Positions 19,115 through 64,000 of a DNA stretch of 64,000 nt are shown piece by piece. How positions within the stretch are numbered: the first letter of the stretch is position 1; every line of letters starts with the position of its first letter. Both the position numbers and the translations under genes were made by a program. The stretch spans positions 434,001 to 498,000 of the forward strand of contig JBPGPT010000001.1 in assembly GCA_051047955.1 (NCBI GenBank), in the 5' to 3' direction. This DNA is from Cystobasidiomycetes sp. EMM_F5. Taxonomy: Eukaryota. Under the pieces are notes generated by a model. The model made no database searches, was not told the origin of the DNA, and saw only the letters and a list, made by a program, of their open reading frames with translations.

Positions 19115-20572
19115 TCAACGACCCGCGAGAGACATTCCGGGCAGCTCCGCAAACACTGGTCGAGCTTTCGTTATAGCTTGCTTGATTCGTGAGATGTCGG
19201 CTGTCGATGAGCAAGTGAAAGGTGAGGCAGAGGCAATTCAGTCTTCTCATTAGGCTCATTGTCGAAGCCACTCACATATGTCTTGACTGTTGCTCACCAC
19301 TAGTATGTATGTTTTTGCGTTGAAAGTATCAAAGAGCAATGTGTACGTATGCTGATTGACTTCCATCGTTTGAAACTCCGCTTTCAATCGCCTGGGAATC
19401 CCTCTGTCAGATCCCTTAAGAAGCAAGCCGCTTGAGGACTCACTTGCAACCCAGTCTAAACAACTTGATAGCCTGCGCAATTTTCGCACAGCGGTCCTCT
19501 GGCCACTCGGACTCTGGCTCATCCGCTCTGTCGCCATTGAGCTTCTGCAACTGGTGCTGATCACTCAGAGCCTGCCCTTGCGCATCCCCATTTGTGATTG
19601 CTGCAGTATGCTTGGATCGACTCTGACTGACTACCAACAATGTCGTCCGCTCGAATAGCACCACTTCACTTGCCCCGATGACATCGGAGAAGCGACTCAA
19701 GTACTTGGAAAGTTGCGTGACGTGCGGATTGAGCGTAGATACAATTTCGGACCATGCCTGATTCGCAGCGTCAGTAGCTTTCGCACATCGTGGGAAGAGA
19801 TTGGTTCCATGCCCACCGTGTACAAAGTCTCGTTGTATATGCTCGTAGCGAAGATCTGCACCCTTTCGAAACCTGCAGCTTTGCATTTTGCTCTTGCTTC
19901 AACAGCCCTCTGCTCGTACACGTGTTGCCGCTCCCCAGACTCCACAAGGTCCATCTTGTGCAGTAAGATATGTACTCTTGGACCGCTCTCCCCCGATATG
20001 CTGTGTTCACCGTCACTATTCTCCTCGCTGCTATCTTCGTCATCCCGCTGTCGTTGTTTTGACCGTGAAGCGACTCCAATACCGGATCCAGCCTGTAAGG
20101 CGTCGAGTATATTGCCAAAGTATACCAGATCAGACGCGGTGGTCTTCTGTACGTCAAATATGTAAATCAGGGTGTGAACTTGGGCGAATATGGTGTTTCG
20201 CCGTCCATCGAGATATTGATCCATGAATGCTAGAGCAGATAGAATGAGCTGTTTCGACATCAGTTGGTGGGAATACTGAAGCTATGTACGCACACTGTTG
20301 TCCACCACAATCCCACAGGTCCAGCTGGAGGTCACCCCAAAACCGGACGGTGGAGTTATTGACATCGATAGTCGCGCCGAAAGTTGTCGTCTGGCGTGCA
20401 ACAACGTTGTCGAATATGATTGCCCTCATGCTCGTCTTGCCGGCGCCAGACCTGCCCATCAGCAGGACCTGTCGATAACGAGATCAGTACATTGGATTCC
20501 CAGACGATTGCAAACATATATCGGATAAGGTGCTGGCCGAGTCGACAGCTTCAGACTAACTTTGCGTTTCAT
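19115..20572 (-). CDS. GTR1: Rag GTPase RagA/Gtr1
   Basis: [73 protein letters not shown]. Confidence 0.92.
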
Positions 20573-48927: not shown

Positions 48928-51589
48928 TCATCTTTTCCCGTTAGGACTTGTGGCGTCAATGGTCGGCGTCGATCCATAGTCATCCGAAATGAAGAGTCGT
49001 TCGTACGATGACAGGTTACCACCGCTCATTAGGCCAAAAAGTACATCGTCGCCCGATGCAGCGTCCACGTTATCAGGATTCGCCGACCACCCTTCTGGCA
49101 GCCAGATTGCCGGGGCGTGACCGATATTGTTTGTAAAGGAACGAGGATCCACAGCTGGTGCAAATGACGCAAAGAGAGCGTTCATATCAAATTGCTGTTG
49201 CGCAGAGATGTCATATTCGGATGACGTTGCTGGAATGGATATCGAACCGTGAGTCGCATTCTGCGAGGGCATCCCTACAGACATAGCAGGCGCATCAGAA
49301 CCTTGCTCAGGGGAAACATTCAATCTTTGCATAAGGGATAAGATGACTGCAAGAATACCCGATATCAGCGTGCAGCGACATAGGAATACCACACGATGTA
49401 AACATATGCTCACCAAGCTTGGCGCGTGAGACACCAGTATTCACGGTTTCCGTTTCGTTGAATATTTCCAGACAGAACTGAAGACGCCTGAAGGCTGGAG
49501 ATAGCGGGCCGAGCTGCGCGGCCACGCGCACATGGACAGTTGCAGCAATGTAGGCGCAGTAGCTGATCAAAAAGGGCGAGCGAAGAAAGCCCAAAGCGGC
49601 ACTGTGTACTTTTAGTAGTTCACTGATGGTGTCGGCGCCCTGAATACACCGCTGCCAGCTGTTTTCAGGAACGACTCCTTTCGCGTCTCGAATATGGCCC
49701 TGCGCCACGAAGGGTCTGTGTACGAGGATGATGATAGTATTCCACACGCAACTGTAGTTGGAATTATTAGCTACGTAACTTGCTTAATTCAGGTTCCCAG
49801 CCGAGAGTGGAACTTACTGCAAAGCTAACAAATTGGCAGGCACAGTCCGACCAGCGGACGTTTCACCCTCGATTTGCAAATGGCCAGGGAGGGTACTTTC
49901 AAAGTCACGAAGATCTGTCTCCAAGCGCCGTAGATTCTCCAGATGTCTTTCGGTGGAGAAATTGAAACTATCAACGCTGTATAGCCACGTTAAGGCGCGT
50001 CCCAGAATGAAACAGAGCTTGCACATAGCGCTGAACGCAGACACACTGCACACTGGCATCGGGTTTGCGGCGGGCGAGTCAGGAGTCAGAGTCGGAGGGC
50101 GCCACAACTCGCTCTCTTCGAAGGCATCGTTGAATACTAGAGGGACCCGGATATCGCCCTCTTGCAATGTAGGAGGCCGACCTTGATACAAGCTATGAAT
50201 CTTGTCGAAACAGAAGGAGCCGTACAAAACCCTCCTTCTTATCTCAACATCCTCACATGTCAGAGACTTGTCAAAAGCTGTGTTGTCGATGTGTAGGCCG
50301 AGATCGACCAGCATACGGAAAGCCAGCCCTGAATATATCCAGGACGACTCATGCTGTCCGAGCGCAAATAGTGAACTGGCGAGTAGTAAAAGCGCCTGTA
50401 TAGTCGGAATGCGAGAGCGGGTGATGGACTCGCCCATCAGCTCGTTGACACGCTTGAGGAATTGATAGCCAGCAGATCGTGGATCATTCGGTTGCGCGCG
50501 GAGTTCCGGTCGCCGACAGAATTTGGAAGCACCGAAGAATATGACGTTCAGCAGTCTGAACAAGAGTAAGTGCTCAGCTGATGATGATTGACGTTGAAAG
50601 GACGTGAGACGACAAGGACGTGACGACTTACAGTTTAGAGAAGTACTTGCCGCCTCCAGCAACGGCCATATCGCGCATAAATGCTGGCCGATAAGTCAAG
50701 AGCAGAGCATGATGCTGACGGTGCCAATGAATGTCAAGAAGCTCCATCGCTGTTTCTGCAGGCACGCCGTCGAAATCCAACCGACCGGCAGCAAGGTCGA
50801 ATATTTCTTGTCGTCGACCTCTTTCAGCGGCATCAACAAGAACAATTTCTGCCTTTTTCCTTTCTTCGGGCGTAGTATACGCCGGCAAGTGCGGTGTACT
50901 GGCTGCATTTCCTGCCCCGAAGGTGTCTGGATGATCGAAGATACTTGTGAGACCGTGAAAGGAGGATCTTCCATCGACCGCTATGTGCATTTGACGGACG
51001 GCAAAGTTGGCATCCAAGGGTGATGCATCGCTTGGCGACACGCTGGCATAGTGATTTGTCGGTTGCTTGTCTTGAGACGACACAGAAGCCGAAGCTGCTC
51101 TGGTCGTGCTTTTACCAGACCAGTTGGATAGGAGTATGTCCCTTTCGTCTGCCGAGGAGAGCTTGAGACGACGAACGAAGCTTTCGAGATCGTTCAGTTC
51201 TTGCTCGACGCTGTTCAAGAGTGCTCGGCTTGGACGAGGGCTGTTTCGTCGTGCAAGTATAGTCAGTTGTCCTATATCTCCACATCTTGGGGTCTCCAGT
51301 CTCCGCTCACCGGCTCGAGACTTCGCGCGTTGCATATTCACAATCGTTACCGCGCCTTTCGCAGTTGGCGCATGGCTGCTTGCCATCGCAGCGGATCTAC
51401 AGACATTGAACGACAGCGCACAGCGCGCGAATAGGATTGTCAGCGGGGCATTGGGGAGACTCCGTCTGGGTTCTGGTTCACTTTGCGGGTCCGACAGAAT
51501 TCGCAAGCTTTGACGACGTTGCTTGCGCTACCGCTATTGCTACGAGCTTGTGGACTTGCCGACCGTCTGCTGCTGGTGCCGCCGTCCAT
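48928..51589 (-). CDS. Zn(II)2Cys6 transcription factor with fungal-specific TF (middle homology) domain
   Basis: Spliced ACEFCRTRK|IRCDGKQPCANCERRGNDCEY; TIQALLLL..SWIYSGLAFRMLVDLGLH..EIRRRVLYGSFCFDKIHSLYQGRP; IILVHRPF. Confidence 0.93.
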
Positions 51590-51648
51590 AATCGTCTCTC
51601 GCTCCGTGGCTCCAGCGTCTGGACTGATTCCCTTCCGTTGCAGTAGTA

Positions 51649-51705
51649 CGGAGTCAAAATGCTCCGCCGCTCCGAAGGCCCGCCGGGCGGACTTCTAACA
51701 AGCCG
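51649..51705. promoter_or_regulatory. Two CGG-N12-CCG Zn2Cys6-type sites (51649-51666, 51688-51705) in the divergent TF/carrier promoter
   Basis: CGGagtcaaaatgctCCG and CGGacttctaacaagCCG, just upstream of TATATATA (51711). Confidence 0.7.
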
Positions 51706-51806
51706 GGTGCTATATATACGTAGACAGAAAGGTTCACATTGGAAACATTTTTACACCGTAAGACCTTTGCTTCTTGTGACACGCTGCCCCTACAAACACT
51801 CCCAAA

Positions 51807-52937
51807 ATGTCTTCCTCTTCGAGTACGAAAAAGCTGCAGCCATGGCAATCACTCACAGCAGGCCTCGTTGCAGGCGCAGTCGAAGGCTTCATTACCTGTA
51901 TGTAATAGCTTGCCCGCCGCATGGGCAGAGTTAACAGTATGACATCCCGCAGATCCTGCCGAAATGACAAAGACCGCTTGCCAGTTCTCAGCAAAGCAAG
52001 GCGCGCCGGTTTCGCCACTAGCTGTTGTCAAAACGACTTTCCAACAACGAGGTATCCGAGGCTTCTACAGCGGTTGCAGTGCACTCGTAGTCGGGAATTC
52101 TGCGAAAGCTGGTGTCCGCTTCTTCTGCTACGATGGCATCAAGGATCTCCTTAAAGATCAACATGTAAGCTGCTCTCCCTAGTGACGTTTCTGTCAGGAC
52201 ACTGACGAATCCTGCATCACAGACCGGAAAGTTGTCAACAGGAGGGAGCATTCTAGCCGGTGCTGCTGCCGGAGCATGTGAGGCCGTTATTGCAGTCACA
52301 CCCAGCGAAGTGAGCATAGTCATAGACAGGAGGAAGGGGGAGACGCGTGCTGACATTGCGATCCCGTCAGGCGATCAAGACGAAGCTTATCGACGATGCT
52401 AGGAGAGCGACGCCCCGCTTTCATGGGAGTGCTCATGGCCTTTCCATGATCGTCAGAGAAGAAGGTGTGACAGGCTTGTATCGTGGATTGACAGCAACAA
52501 TCCTCAAACAATCAGCAAATTCTGCCGTCCGTTTCACTTGTCAGTCAGATTCGATTGTGATACGTGGCACGCAAGCAGCCTAGCTAACATGCATTCTTGC
52601 CGTTTCAGCTTACAATGCCCTCGTATCTGGCATGCGTGCGCTGAGTGGACAACAATCAGGACCCCTTCCAAGTGTGCAAGTCTTTGCATGTGGAGCGGGT
52701 GCTGGTATCATTACAGTCTATGCAACCATGCCGTTTGACGTTGTCAAGACGCGCATGCAAGGTCTGGAAGCTGCAGCCTATGCCAACTCCTTCGACTGTG
52801 CACGCAAAGTCATCCAACAGGACGGGGTGGCAGCTTTGTGGGGAGGTAGCACAGCGCGGCTATCTCGGCTCATGTTCTCGGGAGCCATCGTCTTTACTGT
52901 ATATGAAAAGATGGCTGTTCTCTTGAAGCAGTGGTAG
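51807..52937 (+). CDS. Mitochondrial carrier, citrate/tricarboxylate transporter (Ctp1/Mtt1-like)
   Basis: Three carrier repeats YPAEMTKT, TPSEAIKTKL, MPFDVVKTRMQ; tricarboxylate-type contacts GNSAKAGVRF, KQSANSAVRF, ARLSRL. Confidence 0.9.
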
Positions 52938-53764
52938 AGTTGCTTGTCGGCTAGGGGGATCATCTGTAGCGTAGTCTGACTAAGAGAAATATTGTTGTGC
53001 ATTGTAGAAGTCATCATTTCGCTGGAAAACATAAACAGGATCGTGGCCGTTTGGATTCTGAGGTGCTATGCTAGTCTTCAGTCGGTGTTCATAGTAGTTT
53101 GTACCACGCCTCGTCAGATAGAAAGACGTGTTAGCCAGGCACTGATGCACGAAATGAGCGATGTTGGAAGCTGTGGGAGCCCTTGATTTATTCAATGATG
53201 CAATCTTGCAGCTGGAACATCCAGGACATGGAAACCGCGACAAGCCGAACTCGTTTGCCTGCAGTCGTACTGAGTTGAGTCATATGGCTGCTGTTGGAGT
53301 GCGTTAGGATTCAAGACGTCAGATCTATTTCAGTCCTCCAAATAGAATTCGGCTGCTGCTTCTGCGCTTGCTTGCCGAGGACTCAGCGCCCACATGCTCC
53401 CACTTTTGCACTTTCCGCGTACACGAGCAACCACTACGCATCGAGCAGCGTGCTGCCTGACTTCGCTGCGACCACCAGAGCACACTCGCATCAGTCCCGC
53501 ACCGCTGTATCGAGCATACTGTCGACAGCTCACCGTGAGTGCTGGTATGACGGCGAACCGAAGCTGATCGGCTCAAGCTGATCCAGCTCCCTCCAATCCA
53601 GACGAAACTTCTGGCGTAAAGCGAGACTCGTAACCCCTCTCTGTATCCTCGTACTCTGCACAAGCATACTTGTCCACCCACACTGGGCCTTCTCAGCGAG
53701 TTTTAGACTCGACCCTCTCTATTACTAAGCGCCACCCCATACATCACTCCGCTACCCCGGACCC

Positions 53765-54181
53765 ATGACCGCAGGCTGGATCATCGCTACAGCAGTCGTC
53801 GGCACACTTTGCGTCGTTGGATTTGTCGGCATCTGGATATGGTTCCCTCGTACCTTTGCTAGGGGTTTCAAAGAAGAGATGAAGGCCGTCGACGAAGAAC
53901 TTGCTGCAAAGGGCGCCTCTCCGGAGGAGGTTGCGCAAGCAAGAGCAGCGCGTAATGCAATGTCCAAGGGCATCGTCGAGCGGGCTATCGCACGTGAGCA
54001 AGCCCTCAAGCGTGGCGAAAGGCCGTCGGACGAGGCCGTCGTCCCGAGGGAGTACTACGAACGCAACCCTCACTTGGGCTTCACGGCACTGCCAGTCGTC
54101 TCTGAAGCGTCTGAACGCCATGCTACTAATGCGCCGCCAAACTACAAACCTACGGAGGCCAGTGCACCCCCGCAATACTAG
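53765..54181 (+). CDS. Small single-pass membrane protein
   Basis: 138-aa ORF, N-terminal TM helix, charged tail ending in PPNY/PPQY (PPxY-like) motifs. Confidence 0.7.
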   Translation: MTAGWIIATAVVGTLCVVGFVGIWIWFPRTFARGFKEEMKAVDEELAAKGASPEEVAQARAARNAMSKGIVERAIAREQALKRGERPSDEAVVPREYYERNPHLGFTALPVVSEASERHATNAPPNYKPTEASAPPQY

Positions 54182-54725
54182 GCCTGCGACTCGCTGGCTC
54201 AAGCAGCCCTAAATGTCTCATCAGTGAACATCAGCGACGGAAACGGAGAGTGTGATAGGCAAGGCGAAGGTCACTGGCTGCGCATTAATGTAATTCCGGA
54301 AAGAACATGCGGGCACGACGAATGATGTATCCCTAGTCGCAAACCTGTTCCATGTGTGTACGCGGAATACATCTGACAGATAATCTCCTCCTGCTAATCA
54401 GCCTGTCTGGCCATTTGAGCGAAGTCGATGTCCAAAAGCTAATTTAACGGCTGATAGTATCTTCTTTACATAGTCATTCGTATCGGGAACCCTTTGGAAT
54501 CAAACAGGAAGCACAGCTGATATTGCCCACTTTTGACGAACAGATGCTCAGACACAATGCCTTGCAGGCTGCAAGGAAAGACCACGGTGTTGTGGCTCGG
54601 TCCTAGCTGTGTTGTGCTGATGTTGGCTGAGTTCGTGTTACAGTATTCGTTCTCATAAGCTTCAACTTTTGTAGGTCGACATGCCAACCGACGATGTCGA
54701 CGGGGGGACGCAGTGCCAAGCAAGA

Positions 54726-54876
54726 CGGCTTCAGGAGACTCCGTCGACTGCCTCAGTGGTCTCGTCTCGAAAATGCTGCTTCACTCGCATAACCGGGAGA
54801 CTCGGATTCCGCTTTGGCTTGGCAGGGTCGATCGCCACCAGTCGCACCCCCAGGTCGCCGACTTTCTTTCGTTCCG
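54726..54876. promoter_or_regulatory. CGG-N12-CCG sites (54726-54743, 54794-54811; near-match CGA-N12-CCG 54859-54876) upstream of MFS copy 1
   Basis: CGGcttcaggagactCCG and CGGgagactcggattCCG; TATATAAA at about 54920. Confidence 0.7.
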
Positions 54877-55027
54877 GGTTTTTGTGACTGCGACGGAGCA
54901 ACGGAGCGCCATACACCTCTATATAAATGTTCCTCCAGTTCGCACCCCGCTTCTCCCTCCTTCCTTCCATCAAAGGCTTCTTGCATACTCCTCTCAGCCC
55001 TCATCCTGACAAAACCTCGTACACATC

Positions 55028-57066
55028 ATGGGCAAGGTCAACCTTCACAAAGTCGAGCCATATGAGCTGGTCAGTCTGTGCTTTCGTAACTTACTTCAGC
55101 TTGTGCTAAGTTGCTTTTCAGCCGACGCCGAAAGCCGTCTTTAATATCAAGGTTTACCTCGTAGCGCTTATGAGCACGGCCGCAGCGCTCGATTATGGAT
55201 ACGATCTCGGTTTTATCGGAACCACGCAGACTCTTGCAGCTTATCAGTCGTATATGGGAACAGCTGGGGCTGCGAAAGCGGCTTTCAGAGCTGAGTACAA
55301 TTCGAACGTTGTCGGTGAGTAAATTAAGTTCTCCGAACGCCAAGCACTCATCTAAACACTCCAAACAGCTCTCTTTCAGGCAGGCGCCATCGTGGGGTCC
55401 CTAGCTCCCGCAGCTCTGACATCTAGATTTGGCCGTCGACCTGTCAATATCGCCCTGGCTGTCCTTTTTATCGTAGGAAGCATAGTTCAGTCAGTTGCTG
55501 GCATGGGAGGTACAAATCCCAACGCTATGATGCTTGCTGGCCGCTTCATCAATGGTATTTCTGTCGGCGGAAGTAATTCGGTGGCTCCTTTCCTCGTTTC
55601 CGAGATGTCTCCGCCCTCAATCAGAGGAAGATTGGTCGGCATGTACGAAATTGGTGTGCAGATGGTGAGCTCCGTAGTATCAGCCTGCATCAGGAGCTAT
55701 CTAATGTGCTTCCTTCCCCGCTTTTTTTTTGTTCCTGGTTTTTTTCTCCTATCTTTTTCTCCCTTTGGTTTTTTTCTCTCCTACGTGCAGGGAACACTCT
55801 TAGGATTCTGGATATGCTACGGGCTTGTGCGAAATCACGCAGCGGACGAAATGCAATGGAGAATCCCCTTCATTCTCCAGCTCATTTTTGGTGGCCTCTA
55901 CTTGTTTGGCGCGATCTTCACGGTTCGTTGCGAAGCACTAGCTTGGAAGGCTAGCACCTGACGAAACACATTTCAGCCTGAATCTCCACGTTACTTAGCC
56001 AAATTTGGACGCGAGCGAGTATCGCGCGCTATGGCATACATTCGCAATCTTCCCGAAAGCGACGCATGGCTCAACATCGAAGTCGATGAGATCTGTGCTC
56101 AGTACGAGGCGGAGAAGGGAATGGTTGGAGTTCGCGGATTCTTCCAGGAGCTTAAACAGAAGAGCATTCGCAATCGCTTCATCATGATCACCATTCTCAT
56201 GATATTCTTCCAGTTCTCAGGCACGAATTCGGTCAACTGTAAGCTTGCATCTCCGTTACAAGTGCCGAGGTATACAATTCTAACGCATAAAACAGACTAC
56301 TCCCCGCAAATCTTCGCCAAGCTTGGTATTACCGGGCAGACCGTCTCTTTCCTTGCGACCGGTATCTACGGTGTCATCCGTTTCTCATGCGTGGTTGTCG
56401 CAATGTTCTACCTGGTCGACCGATTCGGCCGTCGTGTCAACCTTCTTACTGGCGCCGCTGTCATGGCCCTGTGCATGTGGATCATTGGTGCACTCGTCAA
56501 AACCTCTACTGGTGGCATTGCTGCTCCCTTGACTCTCATCTACATCTACGCCGCTGCCTTCGTGTGCAGCTATGCAGGCATCCCGTACATCATCAACACC
56601 GAGATCTGGCCTTCTCGTCTGCGCCCAATTGGAATAAGCTGGGGGGTTTTCGTTCATTGGGTGTTCAACCTGGTCATCGGCAAGTCTACTCCGGTGAGTT
56701 GTTGGCTCTTGCAGGCCAGAACGGATGTAGCTTACGCCGTCGGACCGATAGTACATGGTAGAGTCACTTGACTACGGCTTCTTCTGGCTCTACGCTGGCT
56801 TCCTTTCCGTCTCATGCTTCTTCATCTACTTCGTGAGTAGTTGCAGCAAGTGCAACAGCTAGATCATCTACTAAAGCACGATATCCGCCATCCTACAGTT
56901 CGTTCCAGAAACTCGGAACATCTCGCTCGAGCGGATGGAGGAAGTCTTTGGCGGCTCTGCGGCTTCCACCCATGTTCAGAGATCGGAGCTGGATGGTTCG
57001 CATTCAGAAAGCGAAGCTGCATCTCAAAAGGGCGAGGAAATGCCTATTGAACATTACAGGAAGTAG
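55028..57066 (+). CDS. MFS sugar-porter family transporter, quinate-permease-like, copy 1
   Basis: YGYDLGFIG, RFGRR, GRFINGI.VG, SEMSPPSIRGRLVG.YE, QWRIPF, PESPR, FQFSGTNSVNYYSP, DRFGRR, TEIWP..LR, VPETR. Confidence 0.92.
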
Positions 57067-57536
57067 ATGGGCACATCCCTCTTCAGCAGAACTATGCCTG
57101 TCTCGACGGCGTATACTACAGGTTCAGACCGTTGGGGAAGAGCGGCGCAGGGACGACAGACGATGTGGTATAAGTAGTGCTGTTGTTGCTTAGTATGTAG
57201 CAGAAATTCTATGATAGTACGTTAACCTTCTCACTCTTTTGCAGCCATTTTCAGCGAAAGACCATGTCCACCATTCCATTACCTGATTCAATTACGCGAA
57301 TGTCAACAGGTAAAGGTTGATAGCCGCCTGACTACGGTCACTTACTCACAATTGGCACATACTAAAGAGAGTATGGCAATGCCAAAACGTTACATTCTCC
57401 GGTAGCCGTAGGTAATGATTTCTGACGGATTGTTATGAGTACAACACCTCAGAGCTTGTTGGCTACACTATGTGCACGACGGCGCTATGGCTCGCATCTG
57501 TATCCCATAAGTTCAGCATCGGTCGCATCCCTGCAG

Positions 57537-59620
57537 CTAAGCCTTCGTTGTTTCCACTCGAGTCTCCTCATCACCTTTGCCGACCACGCTTGATCTGGGT
57601 GAGCGCTCGTCATGCGGGTACACGTGTGTCGATGCTGCTGAGCCTCCGAAGATCTCCTCCATTCTTTCGAGCGGAACATGACGGGTCTCAGGCACGAACT
57701 GCAATAACGTGTGTGTTAGTCGTGAAACACGAGACATCATTAGAAAACTCACGAAGAAGATAAATGCAACAGAAACAGTAAGGAAACCCGCATACAGCCA
57801 GAAGAAGCCGTAGTCTAATGAAGAAACCATGTACTATCGGTCGACGGCGTAAGCTCACATCGGTTCTGACCTGCAAGAGCTGACAACTCACCGGAGTAGA
57901 CTTGCCGATGACCAGGTTGAACACCCAATGAACGAAAACCCCCCAGCTTATTCCAATTGGGCGCAGACGAGAAGGCCAGATCTCGGTGTTGATGATGAAC
58001 GGTATACCAGCGAAGCTGCACACGAAAGCAGCGGCGTAGATGTAGATGAGAGTCAAGGGAGCAGCAATGCCACCAGTAGAAGTCTTGACGAGGGCGCCAA
58101 TTATCCACATGCAGATTGCCATTACTGACGCGCCCCAAAGCAGGTTGAAGCGTCGTCCGAACCGGTCGACCAGGAACAGCATAGCAATAATCACGCAAAC
58201 GAAACGGATGACACCGTATATGCCGGTGGCGAGGAAAGAGACTGTCTGTCCAGTGATACCAAGCTTGGCGAAGATTTGCGGGGAGTAGTCTGTTTTATGC
58301 GTTAGAATTGCATACCTCGGCACATGTAGCGGAGATGCAAGCTTACAGTTGACCGAATTCGTGCCAGAGAACTGGAAGAATATCATGAGGAACGTGATCA
58401 TCAGGAAGCGGTTTCGAATGCTCTTCTGCCTCAATTCCCGGAAGAAGCCACCAACGCCGACCATTCCCTTCTCGGCTTCGTATTGAGCATGAACCTCGTC
58501 GGCTTCGATATTGAGCCAGGGGTCATTCTCAGGGAGGTTTCGGATGTACGATAATGCTCTCGAGACACGCTCGCGACCATACTTTGCGAGGTATCGAGGA
58601 GATTCGGGCTAGCACAGACTTAGCTAGTAGTCAGGGGGTGTATTGCGACACGGACTTACGCAGAGGAGCGCGCAGCCAAGATAGAGGCCACCAAAAATGA
58701 GCTGGAGAATGAAGGGGATTCTCCACTGCATTTCGTCCGCTGCGTGGTTGCGCACAAGCCCGTAGCATATCCAGAATCCTAAGAGTGTTCCCTGCGCGTA
58801 GGAGAGAAAAAAACCAAAGGGAGAAAAAGATAGGAGAAAAAAACCAGGAACAAAAAAAAAGCGGGGAAAGAAGCACATTAGATAGCTCTTGATGCAGGCT
58901 GACATTAAGGAGCTCACCCCTTGCACGCCGATTTCGTACATGCCGACCAATCTCCCTCGGATTGACGGTGGCGACATTTCGGAGACCAGGAAAGGAGCGA
59001 CGGAATTGCTTCCACCAACGGAAAGGCCATTGATGAAGCGACCAGCGAGCATCATGGCATTGGGATTTGTGCCTCCGAGGCCAGCACACGATTGTACGAT
59101 GCTTCCAACGATATACAAAACAGCGAGACCAATATTGACTGGCTTCCGACCGAATTTGGCGGTTAAAACAGCCGGAGAAAGCGCTCCAATAATGGCGCCT
59201 GCTTGAAAAAGGGCTGTAGAACAGATCTAGTGAGTTCAGGACACTCTAGGGCACTTTCTTTACGCACCGACAACGTTTGAATTGAACGACGCCTGGAACG
59301 CGGCGTTAGCGGCTCCGGCCGTTCCCATGTATTTCTGGTATGGAGCTAGAGTCTGTGTAGTGCCGATGAAGCCTGCGTAGCACTGTCAGTTCTCATATTT
59401 CGCGGTTGAGGTTGTTTCTTTGCGGACCCAGATCGTAACCATAGTTCATCGCGGCAGCCGTGCCCATAAGGGCGACGAGATAGACTTTCAAATTGTACAC
59501 AGCTTTCGGTGTGGGCTACAAGTGTACTCATACGTAAACATCTTGCTTGTTTGCCCAATTATATTAATTACTTACGATTTCATAAGGCTCCACCTTAGCC
59601 AAGTTCAGTTTTCCGCCCAT
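57537..59620 (-). CDS. MFS sugar-porter family transporter, quinate-permease-like, copy 2 (inverted paralog)
   Basis: Same motifs and intron positions as copy 1; ATG MGGKLNLAKVEPY at 59620. Confidence 0.92.
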
Positions 59621-59902
59621 TTTGAAGATCGCAAAGTTGGCAGCTGGATGTAGAGTTTACTCGTTAGAGATGGGGAACGGTAGTTGAAGGGGAAAGACAA
59701 GAAGCAAGCTGGCTTTGCATGAAGTATTTGAGCCTCACGGGCGAGGAGGCCCCGACAATCATCCCCAGTCCGCCAGTCCGTCGCTAATTCGGTCCTCCAT
59801 GGTCGGCAATGGGCATTCCAGTGTCGCATTCGTCAGAGTTGGATGTTCGGCAAAGGCGAGACTAATTTTAGAAAATCTACGGATGGAGTCTGCCACCGAA
59901 AC

Positions 59903-59985
59903 CCTCGGAATCTCACTTCCGAGGACGGAACTTGGCCACTCCGTTTGGCCTGTCGTGCCTGGCGGCACGGCTTTCTACTAACCCG
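59903..59985. promoter_or_regulatory. CGG-N12-CCG sites (59926-59943, 59968-59985) and an 8-bp-arm palindrome CCTCGGAA-N6-TTCCGAGG (59903-59924) in the divergent MFS2/PrpF promoter
   Basis: CGGaacttggccactCCG and CGGctttctactaacCCG read directly from the sequence. Confidence 0.7.
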
Positions 59986-60141
59986 CCAATATGGGGACGG
60001 AACCGGAGATTGGGGTCAGCTAAGCAGAGAGCTTTCGCGCCTTCGGTGCGCATGGAGCAATTGAATGTCTTTACCGTATCCCATCTGTCTGCTTATCTCT
60101 GCCAAAATTTCGTCAGCTGAATTGTCTGCAATTATTGCATC

Positions 60142-61680
60142 ATGAACGGACACAATACGACACGTCTTTCCAGGCACACGCTGCCAGCGGTATTCATGCG
60201 CGCTGGAACGGTGAGGGAGACGCTCAGTCTTCAAGAATGCCAAAATGAAGGGCTGAAATGCGGCTTCCCCACGCAGAGTAAAGGCTTATTCATCAAAGCA
60301 AGCGACCTGCCGGAAGATAGAGAACTATGGCACGAGATACTTCTTGGTGCAATGGGTTCACCAGACCCAGTGAGCTTTACTTTATATTTGGAAGCACGCG
60401 CAGTGAATGACATCCCCTCATCGTACCGCAGTTTGGTCGACAGCTGAATGGAGTAGGTAGCGGTACTCCGACTACGTCAAAGATTGCGGTCATTGGTCCG
60501 AGCCCTCTCGAGGACGTCGACGTCGACTACACTTTTGTTGCTGTTCCAATTGGAGGAGACCGCTTGGATTTCTCGGTAACTCCATGCTGCGGAAAAAGAG
60601 CGTCGGCGCGTATATTGACAGACATTCGGTACAGGGGAACTGCGGCAACATGGCTAGCGGCGTCGCTCCGTTCGCTATTGAAGCTGGGCTCGTCAATCTG
60701 AAGAAGCCGAGCGGTGAAGTTTCTGTAAAGATCCGAAACACGAACACTGGCGTGATTATGCGATCTACCCTTGAAGTGCGCGATGGAATTCCTCTGGAAG
60801 CTGGTTCCTGCATACTCGTGAGTAGAGTACAGATATGCGCGCAAAAATAATCTGAATTACCGCTGCATAGGATGGAGTGCCTGAATCTGGAGCGCCAATC
60901 AAGCTGGATTTCCTCAATCCATCTGGAGCCATGACGGGCAAGTTGCTGCCGAGCGGGAACAGCATCGATGAAGTTCAGCTCGAAAGCAAGCCCAACGGAT
61001 TCAGCTCTTTCCAAGTTTCATTGATCGACGCCGCCAATCCTTTCGTATATGTACGAGCTGCCGACCTTGGTCTGACTGGCAATGAGGCTCCCGCTGCGCT
61101 CATCAAGCATATTGACACCCTAATGGCGATAAGATGCGCAGCCGCTGTCAAGATGGGTCTCGCTCCGGATGTCGCGACTGCTGCGTTGACTGCAGGAACT
61201 CCGAAGATTGCAATAGTCGGCCCTCCTGCAGCATACGTGACTCCAGCAGGGAGACAGCTCAAAGATACGGACATGAATCTTACTATTCGCTCGTTTGGTA
61301 TGGGTGCACCTCATCCGACTCTACAAATGACTGGCGCAGTTTGCCTAGCAGCTGCCTGCGCTGTACCTGGCAGTATACCCAATCAGATCGTGACTGCCGG
61401 CAGCAAGAAGCTGAGTTCTCCACTACGCGTAGCTCATGCCAGCGGTATACTCGAGATCGAGTCCGATTTGGAGATCAATGGAGCAGGTACTGTCATAGTT
61501 CATAGCGGTTCTGTCTATCGGACTGCACGCCGGCTCTTTGAAGGCAACGTTGCCTATCTGGCAAAGGAGGTCGTGTCGGCGCCTATCGCAAAAAGCAATG
61601 GTGTTGCAGCGCATCATGTCAAGCATGCAGTGTTGGAGAATGGACACGTCACCATGCCACGCATGACGGAGGTAGCGTGA
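60142..61680 (+). CDS. PrpF-family isomerase (aconitate delta-isomerase / 2-methylaconitate isomerase-like)
   Basis: PAVFMRAGTSKGLF, MGSPDP.GRQLNGVG.G..TTSK, GNCGNMASGV (catalytic Cys), IRNTNT, IKLDFLNP.GAMTGKLLPSG, SLIDAANP, H.TLQMTGAVCL, RTARRLFEG. Confidence 0.92.
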
Positions 61681-61839: not shown

Positions 61840-63725
61840 CTAATCGACCCAGACTTCTAACTTCCCATCTTGACGGCCGTTAGGGCAATGTTCCCGAGCG
61901 GCATCAACAGCAGACTCCCAATCTGTCTCATCGATAATCGAGATGAATACGCCATCCTCGTCCTTGTACTTGAGATGCATCTCGTCCAGGTCGAATTTAT
62001 CCCGTAAGCGAGAAACAAATTCGGCATAGGCTGTGCTGGAGTCAATAGACTAAAGATAGGTAGTGAGTTCAAAGGTTTGGAAGACAGCGAAGACCAGAGA
62101 CGGACCATTCCTCGGATATCGCCATCGTAGTGTACTTTCAATCGGAAAGAGACCATCTCCAACGATCTTCCTGACGCAGCAGAGCGCTGACCCGACGAAG
62201 ATACCGTTGCCTGCCTGCGCACAGACCCCTTTTCTCCGCCAACGCCAGTAGGAATGGCCAAGCGCGGCAGATCGGATCGGGACAATTTGGTGGCATGCGA
62301 AGCTGAAGTCTGACTGGCTGCCCATTCTGCCACCCGGTCATCTGTCCTACTGGCGCTATTGGACACGGCACTATAGCTTCCTAGCAACTCTTCCAGCTCG
62401 TCTCGCTCGGGTTTGGCGAATGCGAGGCTACCAGCGGCTGATGCAGGCTTCTGTGCTTGGGCTCTTGTACGCTGACTACCGATACCAGCTATACCTGCGA
62501 GTCCCTTCTCGCTGAGTGGAGAGGATGCAGGAGTGGGAAGTCGAACATTCTGTGACACTGGCTGAGGAGCTGGGGTGCTTGTCTCGCCAGAGAATCCCCC
62601 GTACGGCGATTCCCCGACAGTGTAAACTGAGTCGGTTTGCGCCAATGAGAAAACGTTACGATTGTCGTCCTTCCGTTGACGCTGCATAATGAGACCGATA
62701 CCAGCGGCAGTACTTTCGCTGCTACTTCTTACTCGTTGCGGACTATTTTGGGATGGTACACTCGGAGGTCGCAGGGCAACGGTCGCATCCGAAGGTCGCC
62801 GCGTAGACACCAAGCGTCGCGGGATCGAAGTATCAGTTGGGAGCATTTTCTGTTTGACCGGCGGGGACGGGCGACTCGTTGGTGTCGTTATCGTATCATT
62901 CTGGTCACTCTTCACTGACGACGAACGTTTCTTGCTAGGTCCTAGACCACTAAAGCCAATAAATGCGTCCGCTGGATCAGTGGCCGCTACGAGTTTGGCT
63001 GTGCCCAGATAATTCTTGGCCTTTAGATTCTTGAGCTTGATGGCAGCTGGCCGAAACAACACGCCAACAGGAACAGAAAAGACTGTAAAGTTGCGGCCTT
63101 GCTCGTTGTACGCTTCATCAATCACACTATGTTCGTCTGTTTGCTTCTCGCGCCTGGCGGTGTCCAGCAGTTTCATACCAGCTTGCTGCTGTCCCTGTCG
63201 TATCATCGATAAACCTTGATTGAACAGGATTTCCGCAGAGTACAACCTGAACCGCAGACCAAGCTGCTCGTAGCTTATTCAGTAGATAAATGCATGAAAA
63301 GCGTCAAAAATCAATCGTAGCGTAGCGAGTGATACAAAGGCAAGCGTACAGCACTTTGTGTCAGTAGAGATTTTCGTGAAGTCACAATAACGTCATATTA
63401 CTCACTCAATAATCTGATTCTCACGCATGTGAAGGAAAGCATTTTCGAAATCTTGGTGAGCGCGGGGGAAATCCTGCAAGAGAAAGTACGATACGCCCGA
63501 CTGGAAGAAAGAGACTGCGAGGTACTGATCGAGGAGGTGTGCTTGGGCGTAGTACTGAACTGCCTGCTCGTGATGTGCAAGCGTAGCATGAATCAAGCCA
63601 ATATTGAACAAGACTTTTGAAGAATCTGCAATGTAGTCGAAATTCGAAAGAGCACTCGACATATCGCCGGCATCATAGGCGTCTAGTGCCGCTGCCCATC
63701 GTTCAAGTTCTGCCTGCAATGTCAT
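61840..63725 (-). CDS. noxR: NADPH oxidase regulator NoxR (p67phox-like; TPR plus C-terminal PB1)
   Basis: MTLQAELERWAAAL..YD, SSKVLFNIGLI, DQYLAVSFFQSG, YEQLGLRFRLYSAEILFNQGL, FSVPVGVLFRP; PB1 KVHY..DIRG..LKYKDEDG. Confidence 0.93.
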
Positions 63726-64000
63726 AGAGATTGTTCAGAGAATGCCTTGGCCCGATATAGTCATACGTACTTTGAGTGACATGCTGGGATTGGGTTGAAT
63801 GCAGCGTGTATGGACTGCGATTCAATTGTGACCAATTCGGTGAGGATAGCGCTAATGTAAGAAGGTATCAGATAAGCTCAGACCAGCTGAGATGCATAGG
63901 CAAGGGCCCGAGATCCAGCTCGGTGGAGAAAGCAGAAGGGAATTGTATGGACAGGCGGATATGGGTAGGAAGCAGAGCGAAGGACGCTGACAGGCAATTA

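Follow-up and report, generated by a model that had tools for sequence, protein, structure and literature searches.

Paired CGG-N12-CCG palindromes in three promoters of a fungal gene cluster, candidate sites of its own Zn2Cys6 factor

RESULTS

A five-gene cluster in the window (the 64-kb stretch of contig JBPGPT010000001.1 from Cystobasidiomycetes sp. EMM_F5 that was analysed here) carries two exact CGG-N12-CCG sites, palindromes of 18 bases, in each of its three intergenic regions, all of them with exact inverted CGG triplets (6/6). Because the six copies far exceed chance, we regard the motif as very probably the switch by which the cluster is turned on, and the pairs are probably a real, functional cis-element. 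Judging from the sequence, we give a roughly even probability to the palindromes being upstream activating elements that are read by a homodimeric Zn2Cys6 activator, for which the cluster's own factor is the likeliest candidate.

Gene content of the cluster

The cluster consists of a Zn2Cys6 factor (TF), a mitochondrial carrier, two Sugar_tr MFS paralogues and a PrpF-family isomerase, as assigned with Pfam. The genes of the locus are:

48928..51589, minus strand: Zn2Cys6 transcription factor gene, model of 765 aa with 5 introns
51808..52937, plus strand: mitochondrial carrier family gene (PF00153)
53765..54181, plus strand: small single-pass membrane protein of 138 aa without a family match, covered by RNA-like contigs
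55029..57190, plus strand: MFS#1, Sugar_tr family, 3' end approximate
57430..59621, minus strand: MFS#2, paralogue of MFS#1 (87% aa identity), 3' end approximate
60143..61680, plus strand: PrpF-family isomerase gene (PF04303)

Spliced, identical RNA-like contigs lie over MFS#1, MFS#2, the PrpF gene and the small gene at 53765, and three introns of MFS#2 are confirmed by spliced contigs. The PrpF gene covers positions 13-368 of the PF04303 profile, spread over four exons; its nearest relatives of known structure are 3-methylitaconate and 2-methylaconitate isomerases (PDB, E about 1e-28). The carrier is putatively of the tricarboxylate subtype. We propose that the cluster may take in an unsaturated tricarboxylate of the aconitate type, for example trans-aconitate, isomerise it and hand it on to the mitochondria.

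The TF has a canonical zinc cluster (C-X2-C-X6-C-X5-C-X2-C-X6-C), followed by a linker, a heptad-like stretch (judged by eye) and a Fungal_trans domain; the linker from the zinc cluster to RPS measures 11 residues. The TF gene is transcribed divergently from the carrier gene, with a 218-bp promoter in common. Relatives of the TF are patchy in distribution and reach no more than 49% identity across the compared region. Its adjacency to PrpF is found again in a syntenic metagenome locus (L001), in fused gene models of Paramyrothecium and Cylindrodendrum, in which the two are joined, and in two Microbotryomycetes genomes, where the two genes have consecutive locus tags.

Two N12 sites in every cluster promoter

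After gene modelling, the three intergenic regions are:

51590-51807, 218 bp: IG1
54182-55028, 847 bp: IG2
59622-60142, 521 bp: IG3

The initial annotation had listed six exact N12 sites and one with a single mismatch, all of which were recovered (no strand is assigned to the sites):

51649..51666: site A, CGGAGT...GCTCCG, with the TF ATG at 60 bp and the carrier ATG at 142 bp
51688..51705: site B, its end 6 bp ahead of the TATATATA element at 51711
54726..54743: site C, CGGCTT...ACTCCG, with the MFS#1 ATG 286 bp downstream
54794..54811: site D, with the MFS#1 ATG 218 bp downstream
54859..54876: weak one-mismatch site, CGA...CCG, CGA replacing CGG
59926..59943: site E, CGGAAC...ACTCCG, with the MFS#2 ATG at 305 bp and the PrpF ATG at 200 bp
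59968..59985: site F, CGGCTT..., with CCAAT directly after it, at 59986

The two sites of a pair are spaced 39, 68 and 42 bp apart in the three promoters. Five start codons are found at distances of 60-347 bp from the sites, which in IG1 and IG2 are upstream of TATA elements. An exact-site search also agrees with the earlier observation that the gene at 53765 lacks an N12 site upstream. Two further exact sites, absent from the initial annotation, lie at 56722 within a predicted MFS#1 intron and at 50867 within a TF coding exon. One-mismatch sites showed no clear enrichment in the intergenic regions (11 vs 6.5 expected).

We scanned the three regions for CGG triplets in inverted, everted and direct arrangement with spacers of 0-25 bp. 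Inverted N12 occurred 2/2/2 times across the regions, and all other inverted or everted spacers each totalled at most 3; direct N13 occurred 3/2/0 times with both strands counted. In 5000 dinucleotide shuffles of the regions the N12 total averaged 0.36 with a maximum of 3, a count of 6 was never reached at any inverted or everted spacer, and at least two sites in every region at any of the 78 configurations were seen once. As a second control we drew 20000 random length-matched triplets of real window sequence: none had 6 sites at N12, two had 6 at any inverted or everted spacer, and 17 had at least two in each region at any configuration. Given the CGG/CCG triplets that are present, N12 accounts for 6 of the 15 inverted pairs with spacers of 0-25 bp, other spacers for at most one each (binomial x26 = 3e-4). 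In an unbiased scan of about 43,008 trinucleotide dyads CGG-N12-CCG ranked first (P = 1.1e-6), a value that barely survives Bonferroni correction (about 0.05).

A coincidence of composition, in which N12 would have no function, draws on this borderline corrected value, on the choice of the spacer after the fact, on a density of CGG and CCG in the regions about 1.3 times the window average, and on the lack of the pattern in L001. Both controls, in which neither shuffles nor real-sequence draws reached the observed N12 count, and the conditional test on the triplets already present make such a coincidence very improbable.

Over the whole window there are 18 exact N12 sites, against a mean of 10.96 in 100 dinucleotide shuffles, three of which had at least 18. 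The 12 sites outside the cluster are inside the range of other spacers and so not over-represented. The cluster sites differ from these 12 in the flanks of their half-sites: T at +3 is found in 9/12 cluster half-sites vs 8/24 control half-sites, and T at -1 or +1 in 0/12 cluster half-sites. Apart from matches of at most 14 nt, the three promoters cannot be aligned with one another, and the sites are therefore not repeat copies. The genes for MFS#1 and MFS#2 still share 82% identity at the DNA level; their promoters can no longer be aligned, yet each promoter has kept two N12 sites.

The same genes with another element in L001

Conservation in orthologous promoters had been proposed as a check on the motif. 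Our comparison covered one syntenic cluster, L001, from a distant relative whose TF is 40% identical; N12 was found in 0/3 of its promoter regions, which have no preferred CGG spacing at all. The element enriched there is TCCGYGG, with 7 of the 10 copies of the locus in promoter regions (0.96 expected). Counted by eye, the TF linker has 11 residues in our cluster vs 9 in L001 and six homologues (P0010, P0014, P0019, P0025, P0026 and P0033).

We offer tentatively, as an unlikely interpretation, that these loci represent an uncharacterised module, shared across fungi, for the assimilation of aconitate-type acids (plasma-membrane importer, cytosolic PrpF isomerase, mitochondrial carrier and dedicated Zn2Cys6 regulator), whose cis-code was rewired between lineages, with the compact TCCGYGG in L001 and the paired N12 here, a shift that coincides with the two-residue longer linker. 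If true, nature would here offer a case in which the length of the linker has reset the geometry of the half-sites inside one orthologous regulator family.

Candidate readers of the sites

The proposal that the N12 sites define the regulon of the cluster TF was upheld in part. The sites are real and non-random, their inverted CGG triplets are what a Zn2Cys6 dimer would be expected to recognise, and the divergent cluster gene encodes a canonical factor of this class; against the proposal stand the L001 promoters and the earlier publication of CGG-N12-CCG as the consensus of Aspergillus fumigatus AtrR, itself a global Zn2Cys6 regulator, on the basis of EMSA and DNase footprinting (PMC6414702). 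From the motif by itself the sites thus cannot be attributed to the cluster factor, and AtrR is a real rival reader. An AtrR orthologue binding here would tie the transporter and TF genes into a wider membrane and drug-response regulon. The AtrR response elements (ATREs) resemble our sites in their triplets, inverted orientation, 12-bp spacer and tandem pairs tens of bp apart, those of abcG1 being about 51 bp apart (PMC6414702, Table 2), and in the A after CGG, which is found at +1 in 7/12 cluster half-sites and, by our own count, likewise in 7/12 half-sites of the six full-consensus sites of that table. Plasma membrane and sequence-specific DNA binding are among the GO terms enriched in the AtrR targets, and a CBC site adjoins the ATRE of cyp51A as the CCAAT box adjoins site F (PMC6414702). 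Published accounts call the AtrR family broadly conserved among filamentous fungi or filamentous ascomycetes, and AtrR itself has hundreds of targets, among which sterol, ABC-transporter and iron genes are named (PMC6414702, PMC10294635, PMC12505884). AtrR is global, whereas the cluster sites are concentrated in one five-gene cluster, and paired sites in three neighbouring promoters around a dedicated regulator are typical of a pathway-specific factor. The cluster genes (MFS, mitochondrial carrier, PrpF and TF by Pfam) include no sterol or ABC-type targets, and N12 is not over-represented elsewhere in the window. The SrbA element TCANNCCA, a frequent companion of ATREs, is not enriched in the three regions (1 vs 0.99 expected), and the T at +3 of the cluster half-sites is lacking as a preference in the published ATREs (3/12, our own count; PMC6414702). 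On balance we consider AtrR an unlikely reader.

The cluster factor might instead read a single CGG half-site, ACGGAR (= YTCCGT), related to the TCCGYGG of L001, with N12 pairing secondary or only partly relevant. The three regions hold 7 of the 36 window copies of ACGGAG (0.88 expected); YTCCGT stands at 11/72 vs 1.76 expected in the window and at 6/16 vs 1.53 expected in L001, and by these counts it is the sole element enriched in both clusters. No N12 pair includes the tandem ACGGAGC ACGGAGC at 54893-54908 or the CTCCGTGG at 51602. ACGGAR, the core common to both clusters, is found in only 4/12 of the N12 half-sites, which counts against the half-site and equally against a dyad read by the cluster's own TF. 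A monomer site leaves the strict N12 spacing among the inverted pairs unexplained and the half-site motifs were picked after seeing the data, so that we rate this reading as quite unlikely.

Were the cluster's own factor to bind, as we favour, each zinc cluster of the dimer would contact one CGG, the linker and coiled coil would fix the 12-bp spacing, and the two sites per promoter would allow cooperative, co-ordinated induction of the genes for the carrier, both MFS transporters and PrpF. The TF gene would also be induced, via the promoter that it has in common with the carrier; as one site pair lies in this divergent promoter, autoregulation is possible. The sites, their non-random occurrence and promoter positions, the gene families and the recurrent TF-PrpF pairing are observed; what we infer in this scheme is the binder, activation as opposed to repression, autoregulation and the substrate.

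DISCUSSION

The N12 spacing itself is not new. Since it is the AtrR consensus, motif-based regulon calls in filamentous fungi cannot pin an N12 dyad on a neighbouring regulator without binding data. If the cluster factor binds the sites, they would give a handle on an unstudied fungal organic-acid module through a reporter, an inducer screen or a regulon search. If upheld, the contrast with L001 (same genes, other enriched element) would usefully illustrate the turnover of cis-regulatory elements. The module itself may correspond, in eukaryotes, to bacterial trans-aconitate assimilation and be related to the itaconate cluster of Ustilago.

Zn2Cys6 factors recognise upstream activating sequences with spacers of N11 (Gal4), N10 (Put3) and N6 (Ppr1). 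The cluster sites resemble such classical elements in having inverted CGG triplets with a fixed, factor-specific spacer, in occurring in several copies per promoter, and in lying in the divergent promoters of a pathway cluster that contains targets of the regulator, here putative; they differ in the spacer of 12. The NirA site is CTCCGHGG and the yeast PDRE is TCCGYGGA. The TCCGYGG of L001, often TCCGTGGA, matches these consensus sequences, and one exact CTCCGTGG is the copy at 51602 noted above, whereas the dominant pattern in the window is the N12 dyad and not the compact element.

The itaconate cluster of Ustilago maydis (adi1, mtt1, itp1, tad1 and ria1) likewise groups a PrpF-family isomerase, a mitochondrial carrier, an MFS transporter and a pathway-specific regulator (PMC4720413). 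Its regulator is the bHLH protein Ria1, whereas ours combines Zn2Cys6 and Fungal_trans domains (PMC4720413). A Pfam search of six-frame ORFs in the window (at least 90 aa in 40-64 kb, at least 120 aa elsewhere) found no Tad1-like (CMLE-type) decarboxylase, lyase, P450 or dioxygenase. The MFS genes here differ from those of the itaconate cluster in being of the Sugar_tr type, which suggests uptake and not export. The bacterial tarR-tarBA system follows the same logic, in which a regulator, an importer in the membrane and an aconitate isomerase of the PrpF type deliver cis-aconitate into central metabolism (PMC11495376); to this scheme the putative eukaryotic version described here adds a mitochondrial carrier and a Zn2Cys6 regulator.

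Paired CGG-N12-CCG sites in the promoters of a six-gene cluster

We built gene models from Pfam matches on six-frame ORFs and a reading of the sequence, which gave the following features.

Genes of the cluster and its right-hand neighbour
ATG 51589, minus strand: Zn2Cys6 + Fungal_trans regulator (cluster TF), model of 765 aa with five introns
ATG 51808, divergent from the regulator: mitochondrial carrier gene
53765-54181, plus strand: single-pass membrane protein of 138 aa, no known family
ATG 55029, plus strand: MFS#1, Sugar_tr-type
ATG 59621, minus strand: MFS#2, Sugar_tr-type
ATG 60143, divergent from MFS#2: PrpF-family isomerase
61860-63734, minus strand: right-hand neighbour, TPR+PB1, NoxR/p67phox-like (Pfam and atlas look-up)

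MFS#1 and MFS#2 form a tail-to-tail inverted duplication (55029-59621) in which the proteins are 87% identical and the DNA, across 1642 nt, is 82% identical; an atlas look-up for MFS#1 returned nothing substrate-specific. The right-hand neighbour, which looks like a TPR+PB1 (NoxR-like) gene, lies outside the cluster and marks its boundary, and to the left Pfam on six-frame ORFs placed a 568-aa ORF and polyubiquitin. With these flanking genes placed outside, the cluster consists of six genes, five of which have an N12 site (CGG-N12-CCG) upstream; the exception is the small gene at 53765, as the initial annotation had claimed. Elsewhere in the window, an ORF at 36994-37491 matches an integrase zinc-binding (H2C2) domain and is probably a retroelement remnant.

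A pattern search recovered the six exact N12 sites of the initial annotation at 51649, 51688, 54726, 54794, 59926 and 59968 (sites A to F), and the one-mismatch site that it had placed at 54859 is also present. The six sites lie 60-347 bp from start codons in three intergenic regions of 218, 847 and 521 bp (IG1, 51590-51807; IG2, 54182-55028; IG3, 59622-60142), and those in IG1 and IG2 are upstream of clear TATA elements. A CCAAT box (59986-59990) directly adjoins site F, which recalls the ATRE/CBC arrangement of Aspergillus fumigatus cyp51A, where, according to PMC6414702, the response element of the global Zn2Cys6 regulator AtrR (ATRE) adjoins a CCAAT-complex site. Immediately upstream of the MFS#1 TATATAAA there is a tandem direct repeat, ACGGAGC ACGGAGC (54893-54908), which carries the half-site core common to three N12 sites, yet lies outside any N12 pair.

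The whole 64-kb window contains 18 exact N12 sites, compared with a mean of 10.96 in 100 shuffles, at least 18 being reached in 3 of these. Close to the cluster, two exact sites were missing from the initial list, one at 50867 within a TF coding exon and one at 56722-56739, the seventh within the span of sites A to F, in an MFS#1 intron of 68 nt predicted towards the 3' end of that gene. This intron was predicted by paralogy with an RNA-supported MFS#2 intron (57699-57752, confirmed by a spliced contig), which has no N12 site. Another exact site (20522-20539) is at the edge of the very short stretch separating two divergent genes, one for Gtr1/RagA and one for delta-aminolevulinate dehydratase (haem synthesis); it could serve AtrR or another global factor that reads N12, or be due to chance.

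We also compared the cluster with two public sequencing runs, neither on record as RNA, each of which holds a small share of it. Their short contigs, some of them spliced, are identical to the window at 53785-54222, 56065-58431, 59288-59631 and 61398-61639, and spliced contigs confirmed three MFS#2 introns (57699-57752, 59372-59426 and 59516-59575). These contigs show transcription, somewhere, of MFS#1, MFS#2, PrpF and the small gene, and hence the presence of the organism and of cluster transcripts in public samples. The contig cover does not include the TF gene, its gaps are uninformative, and it gives neither promoter variation nor transcription starts.

Chance is a very unlikely source of the N12 pattern

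When spacers of 0-25 were scanned in inverted, everted and direct orientation, two sites in each of the three regions (2/2/2) occurred at inverted N12 only, and all other inverted or everted spacers had totals of at most 3. When the three regions were shuffled 5000 times with dinucleotides preserved, the N12 total had a mean of 0.36 and a maximum of 3; no inverted or everted spacer came to 6 in any shuffle, and one shuffle had at least 2 per region at some one of the 78 configurations. Of 20000 triplets of equal lengths drawn at random from real window sequence, none had 6 sites at N12, 2 had 6 at some inverted or everted spacer and 17 had at least 2 per region at some configuration. Given the CGG/CCG triplets present, N12 accounts for 6 of the 15 inverted pairs (3e-4, corrected for 26 spacers). 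In a hypothesis-free scan of ~43,000 trinucleotide dyads, CGG-N12-CCG ranked first (P = 1.1e-6, Bonferroni ~0.05), several of the runners-up being shifted copies of it. One-mismatch N12 sites showed no clear enrichment in the three regions (11 versus 6.5 expected). With four controls in agreement, we take the N12 pattern to be real, and we consider it very improbable that chance or base composition explains it.

We found no repeat longer than 14 nt common to the three regions. The MFS#1 and MFS#2 promoters have a global alignment score of 85, equal to the shuffle maximum (mean 56.9, sd 13.3), and are not convincingly alignable. Together these results indicate that the sites are not copies of a dispersed element. 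Among the half-sites of the cluster, 9 of 12 have T at +3 of the CGG flank, compared with 8 of 24 for the half-sites of the window's other 12 N12 sites, and none has T at -1 or +1.

A syntenic locus with a different promoter architecture

A metagenome scan gave three loci from 318 pattern matches. One of them, L001, is a fungal contig with a carrier gene and a Zn2Cys6 regulator in divergent orientation, after which come PrpF and a gene of the MFS_1 type, with identities to the window of 46% (carrier), 40% (TF) and 41% (PrpF). A 72%-identical tblastn segment between the two TFs lies mid-protein, not in the DNA-binding domain. L002 matches a portion of L001 at 98% identity and so adds nothing, and L003 is bacterial. 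PrpF has closer relatives in three other homologues (P0058, P0059 and P0060; 60-64% identical), on contigs of up to 44.8 kb. TF and PrpF are also paired in Paramyrothecium and Cylindrodendrum, where their gene models are fused, and in two genomes of Microbotryomycetes, where their locus tags are consecutive; with L001, these pairings indicate that regulator and isomerase travel together across Ascomycota and Basidiomycota.

The initial annotation had named conservation in orthologous promoters as a check on the N12 sites, and in this one distant relative the expectation failed: the three intergenic regions of L001 (5280-5667, 8851-9460 and 10739-11726) contain 0 N12 sites, and no preferred CGG spacing was found in them. 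They hold 7 of the 10 L001 copies of TCCGYGG (often TCCGTGGA), with 0.96 expected, and among the copies is a perfect inverted repeat whose 10-nt arms are 8 nt apart (11310-11319/11328-11337), upstream of the MFS gene. As the intergenic DNA of L001 is AT-rich, AT-rich dyads prevailed in a dyad scan of this locus, which was uninformative save for CCG-N2-GAA at 2/2/2.

Candidate readers of the N12 sites

One element alone, the half-site YTCCGT (ACGGAR), is enriched in both clusters: 11 of 72 copies lie in the three regions of the window (1.76 expected) and 6 of 16 in those of L001 (1.53 expected), for a motif chosen after seeing the data. We regard it as quite doubtful that this half-site, in another geometry, is the true determinant. 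In the linker region of the window TF (51310-51250), 11 residues separate the last zinc-cluster cysteine from the conserved RP(S/T) motif preceding a heptad-like stretch, and this gap is 9, counted by eye, in L001 and in the homologues P0010, P0014, P0019, P0025, P0026 and P0033; speculatively, the 11- versus 9-residue linker could lie behind a different site geometry.

In the literature searched, exact CGG-N12-CCG strings occur in two papers, both on AtrR of A. fumigatus. The AtrR papers (PMC6414702, PMC10294635, PMC12505884) report that CGG-N12-CCG is sufficient as an ATRE, by EMSA and DNase footprinting, that abcG1 has two ATREs ~51 bp apart, and that AtrR targets are enriched for plasma-membrane and DNA-binding proteins; they describe the AtrR family as widely conserved in filamentous fungi. 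The N12 spacer was therefore already known, and AtrR is a second candidate for the role of reader. However, we think it unlikely that an AtrR orthologue, rather than the cluster factor, reads these sites: the SrbA element, often found with ATREs, is not enriched in the three regions (1 versus 0.99 expected), N12 is not over-represented outside the cluster (12 window sites, a count in line with those of other spacers), and published ATREs do not show the T preference at +3 (3 of 12, our own count from PMC6414702). Moreover, paired sites concentrated around a dedicated regulator are typical of pathway-specific factors. The cluster TF is not AtrR-like, judged by the distribution of its relatives, the best of which are at most 49% identical over the compared region and scattered across classes. 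We give the cluster's own factor about an even chance of being the reader; in the most likely mechanism, a Zn2Cys6 dimer would read the paired N12 dyads and so co-induce the cluster.

Putative function and comparison with known systems

The closest solved relatives of PrpF are 3-methylitaconate and 2-methylaconitate isomerases. The uptake-type MFS genes and the carrier, putatively of a tricarboxylate subtype, suggest a three-step route in which the putative substrate, an aconitate-like tricarboxylate, would be imported by an uptake-type MFS protein, isomerised in the cytosol and handed over to mitochondria. Our literature search found no description of a fungal Zn2Cys6-regulated trans-aconitate cluster. 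The N12 dyad is a known kind of element, here in a new instance attached to an apparently undescribed fungal organic-acid module. The gene set resembles part of the Ustilago itaconate cluster, which, according to PMC4720413, comprises the PrpF-type Adi1, the mitochondrial Mtt1, the MFS protein Itp1 and a pathway regulator; unlike that cluster, the one described here has no decarboxylase among the Pfam matches on six-frame ORFs, and its regulator is from a different family. Its logic is that of the bacterial tar system, in which regulator, importer and aconitate isomerase come together (PMC11495376).
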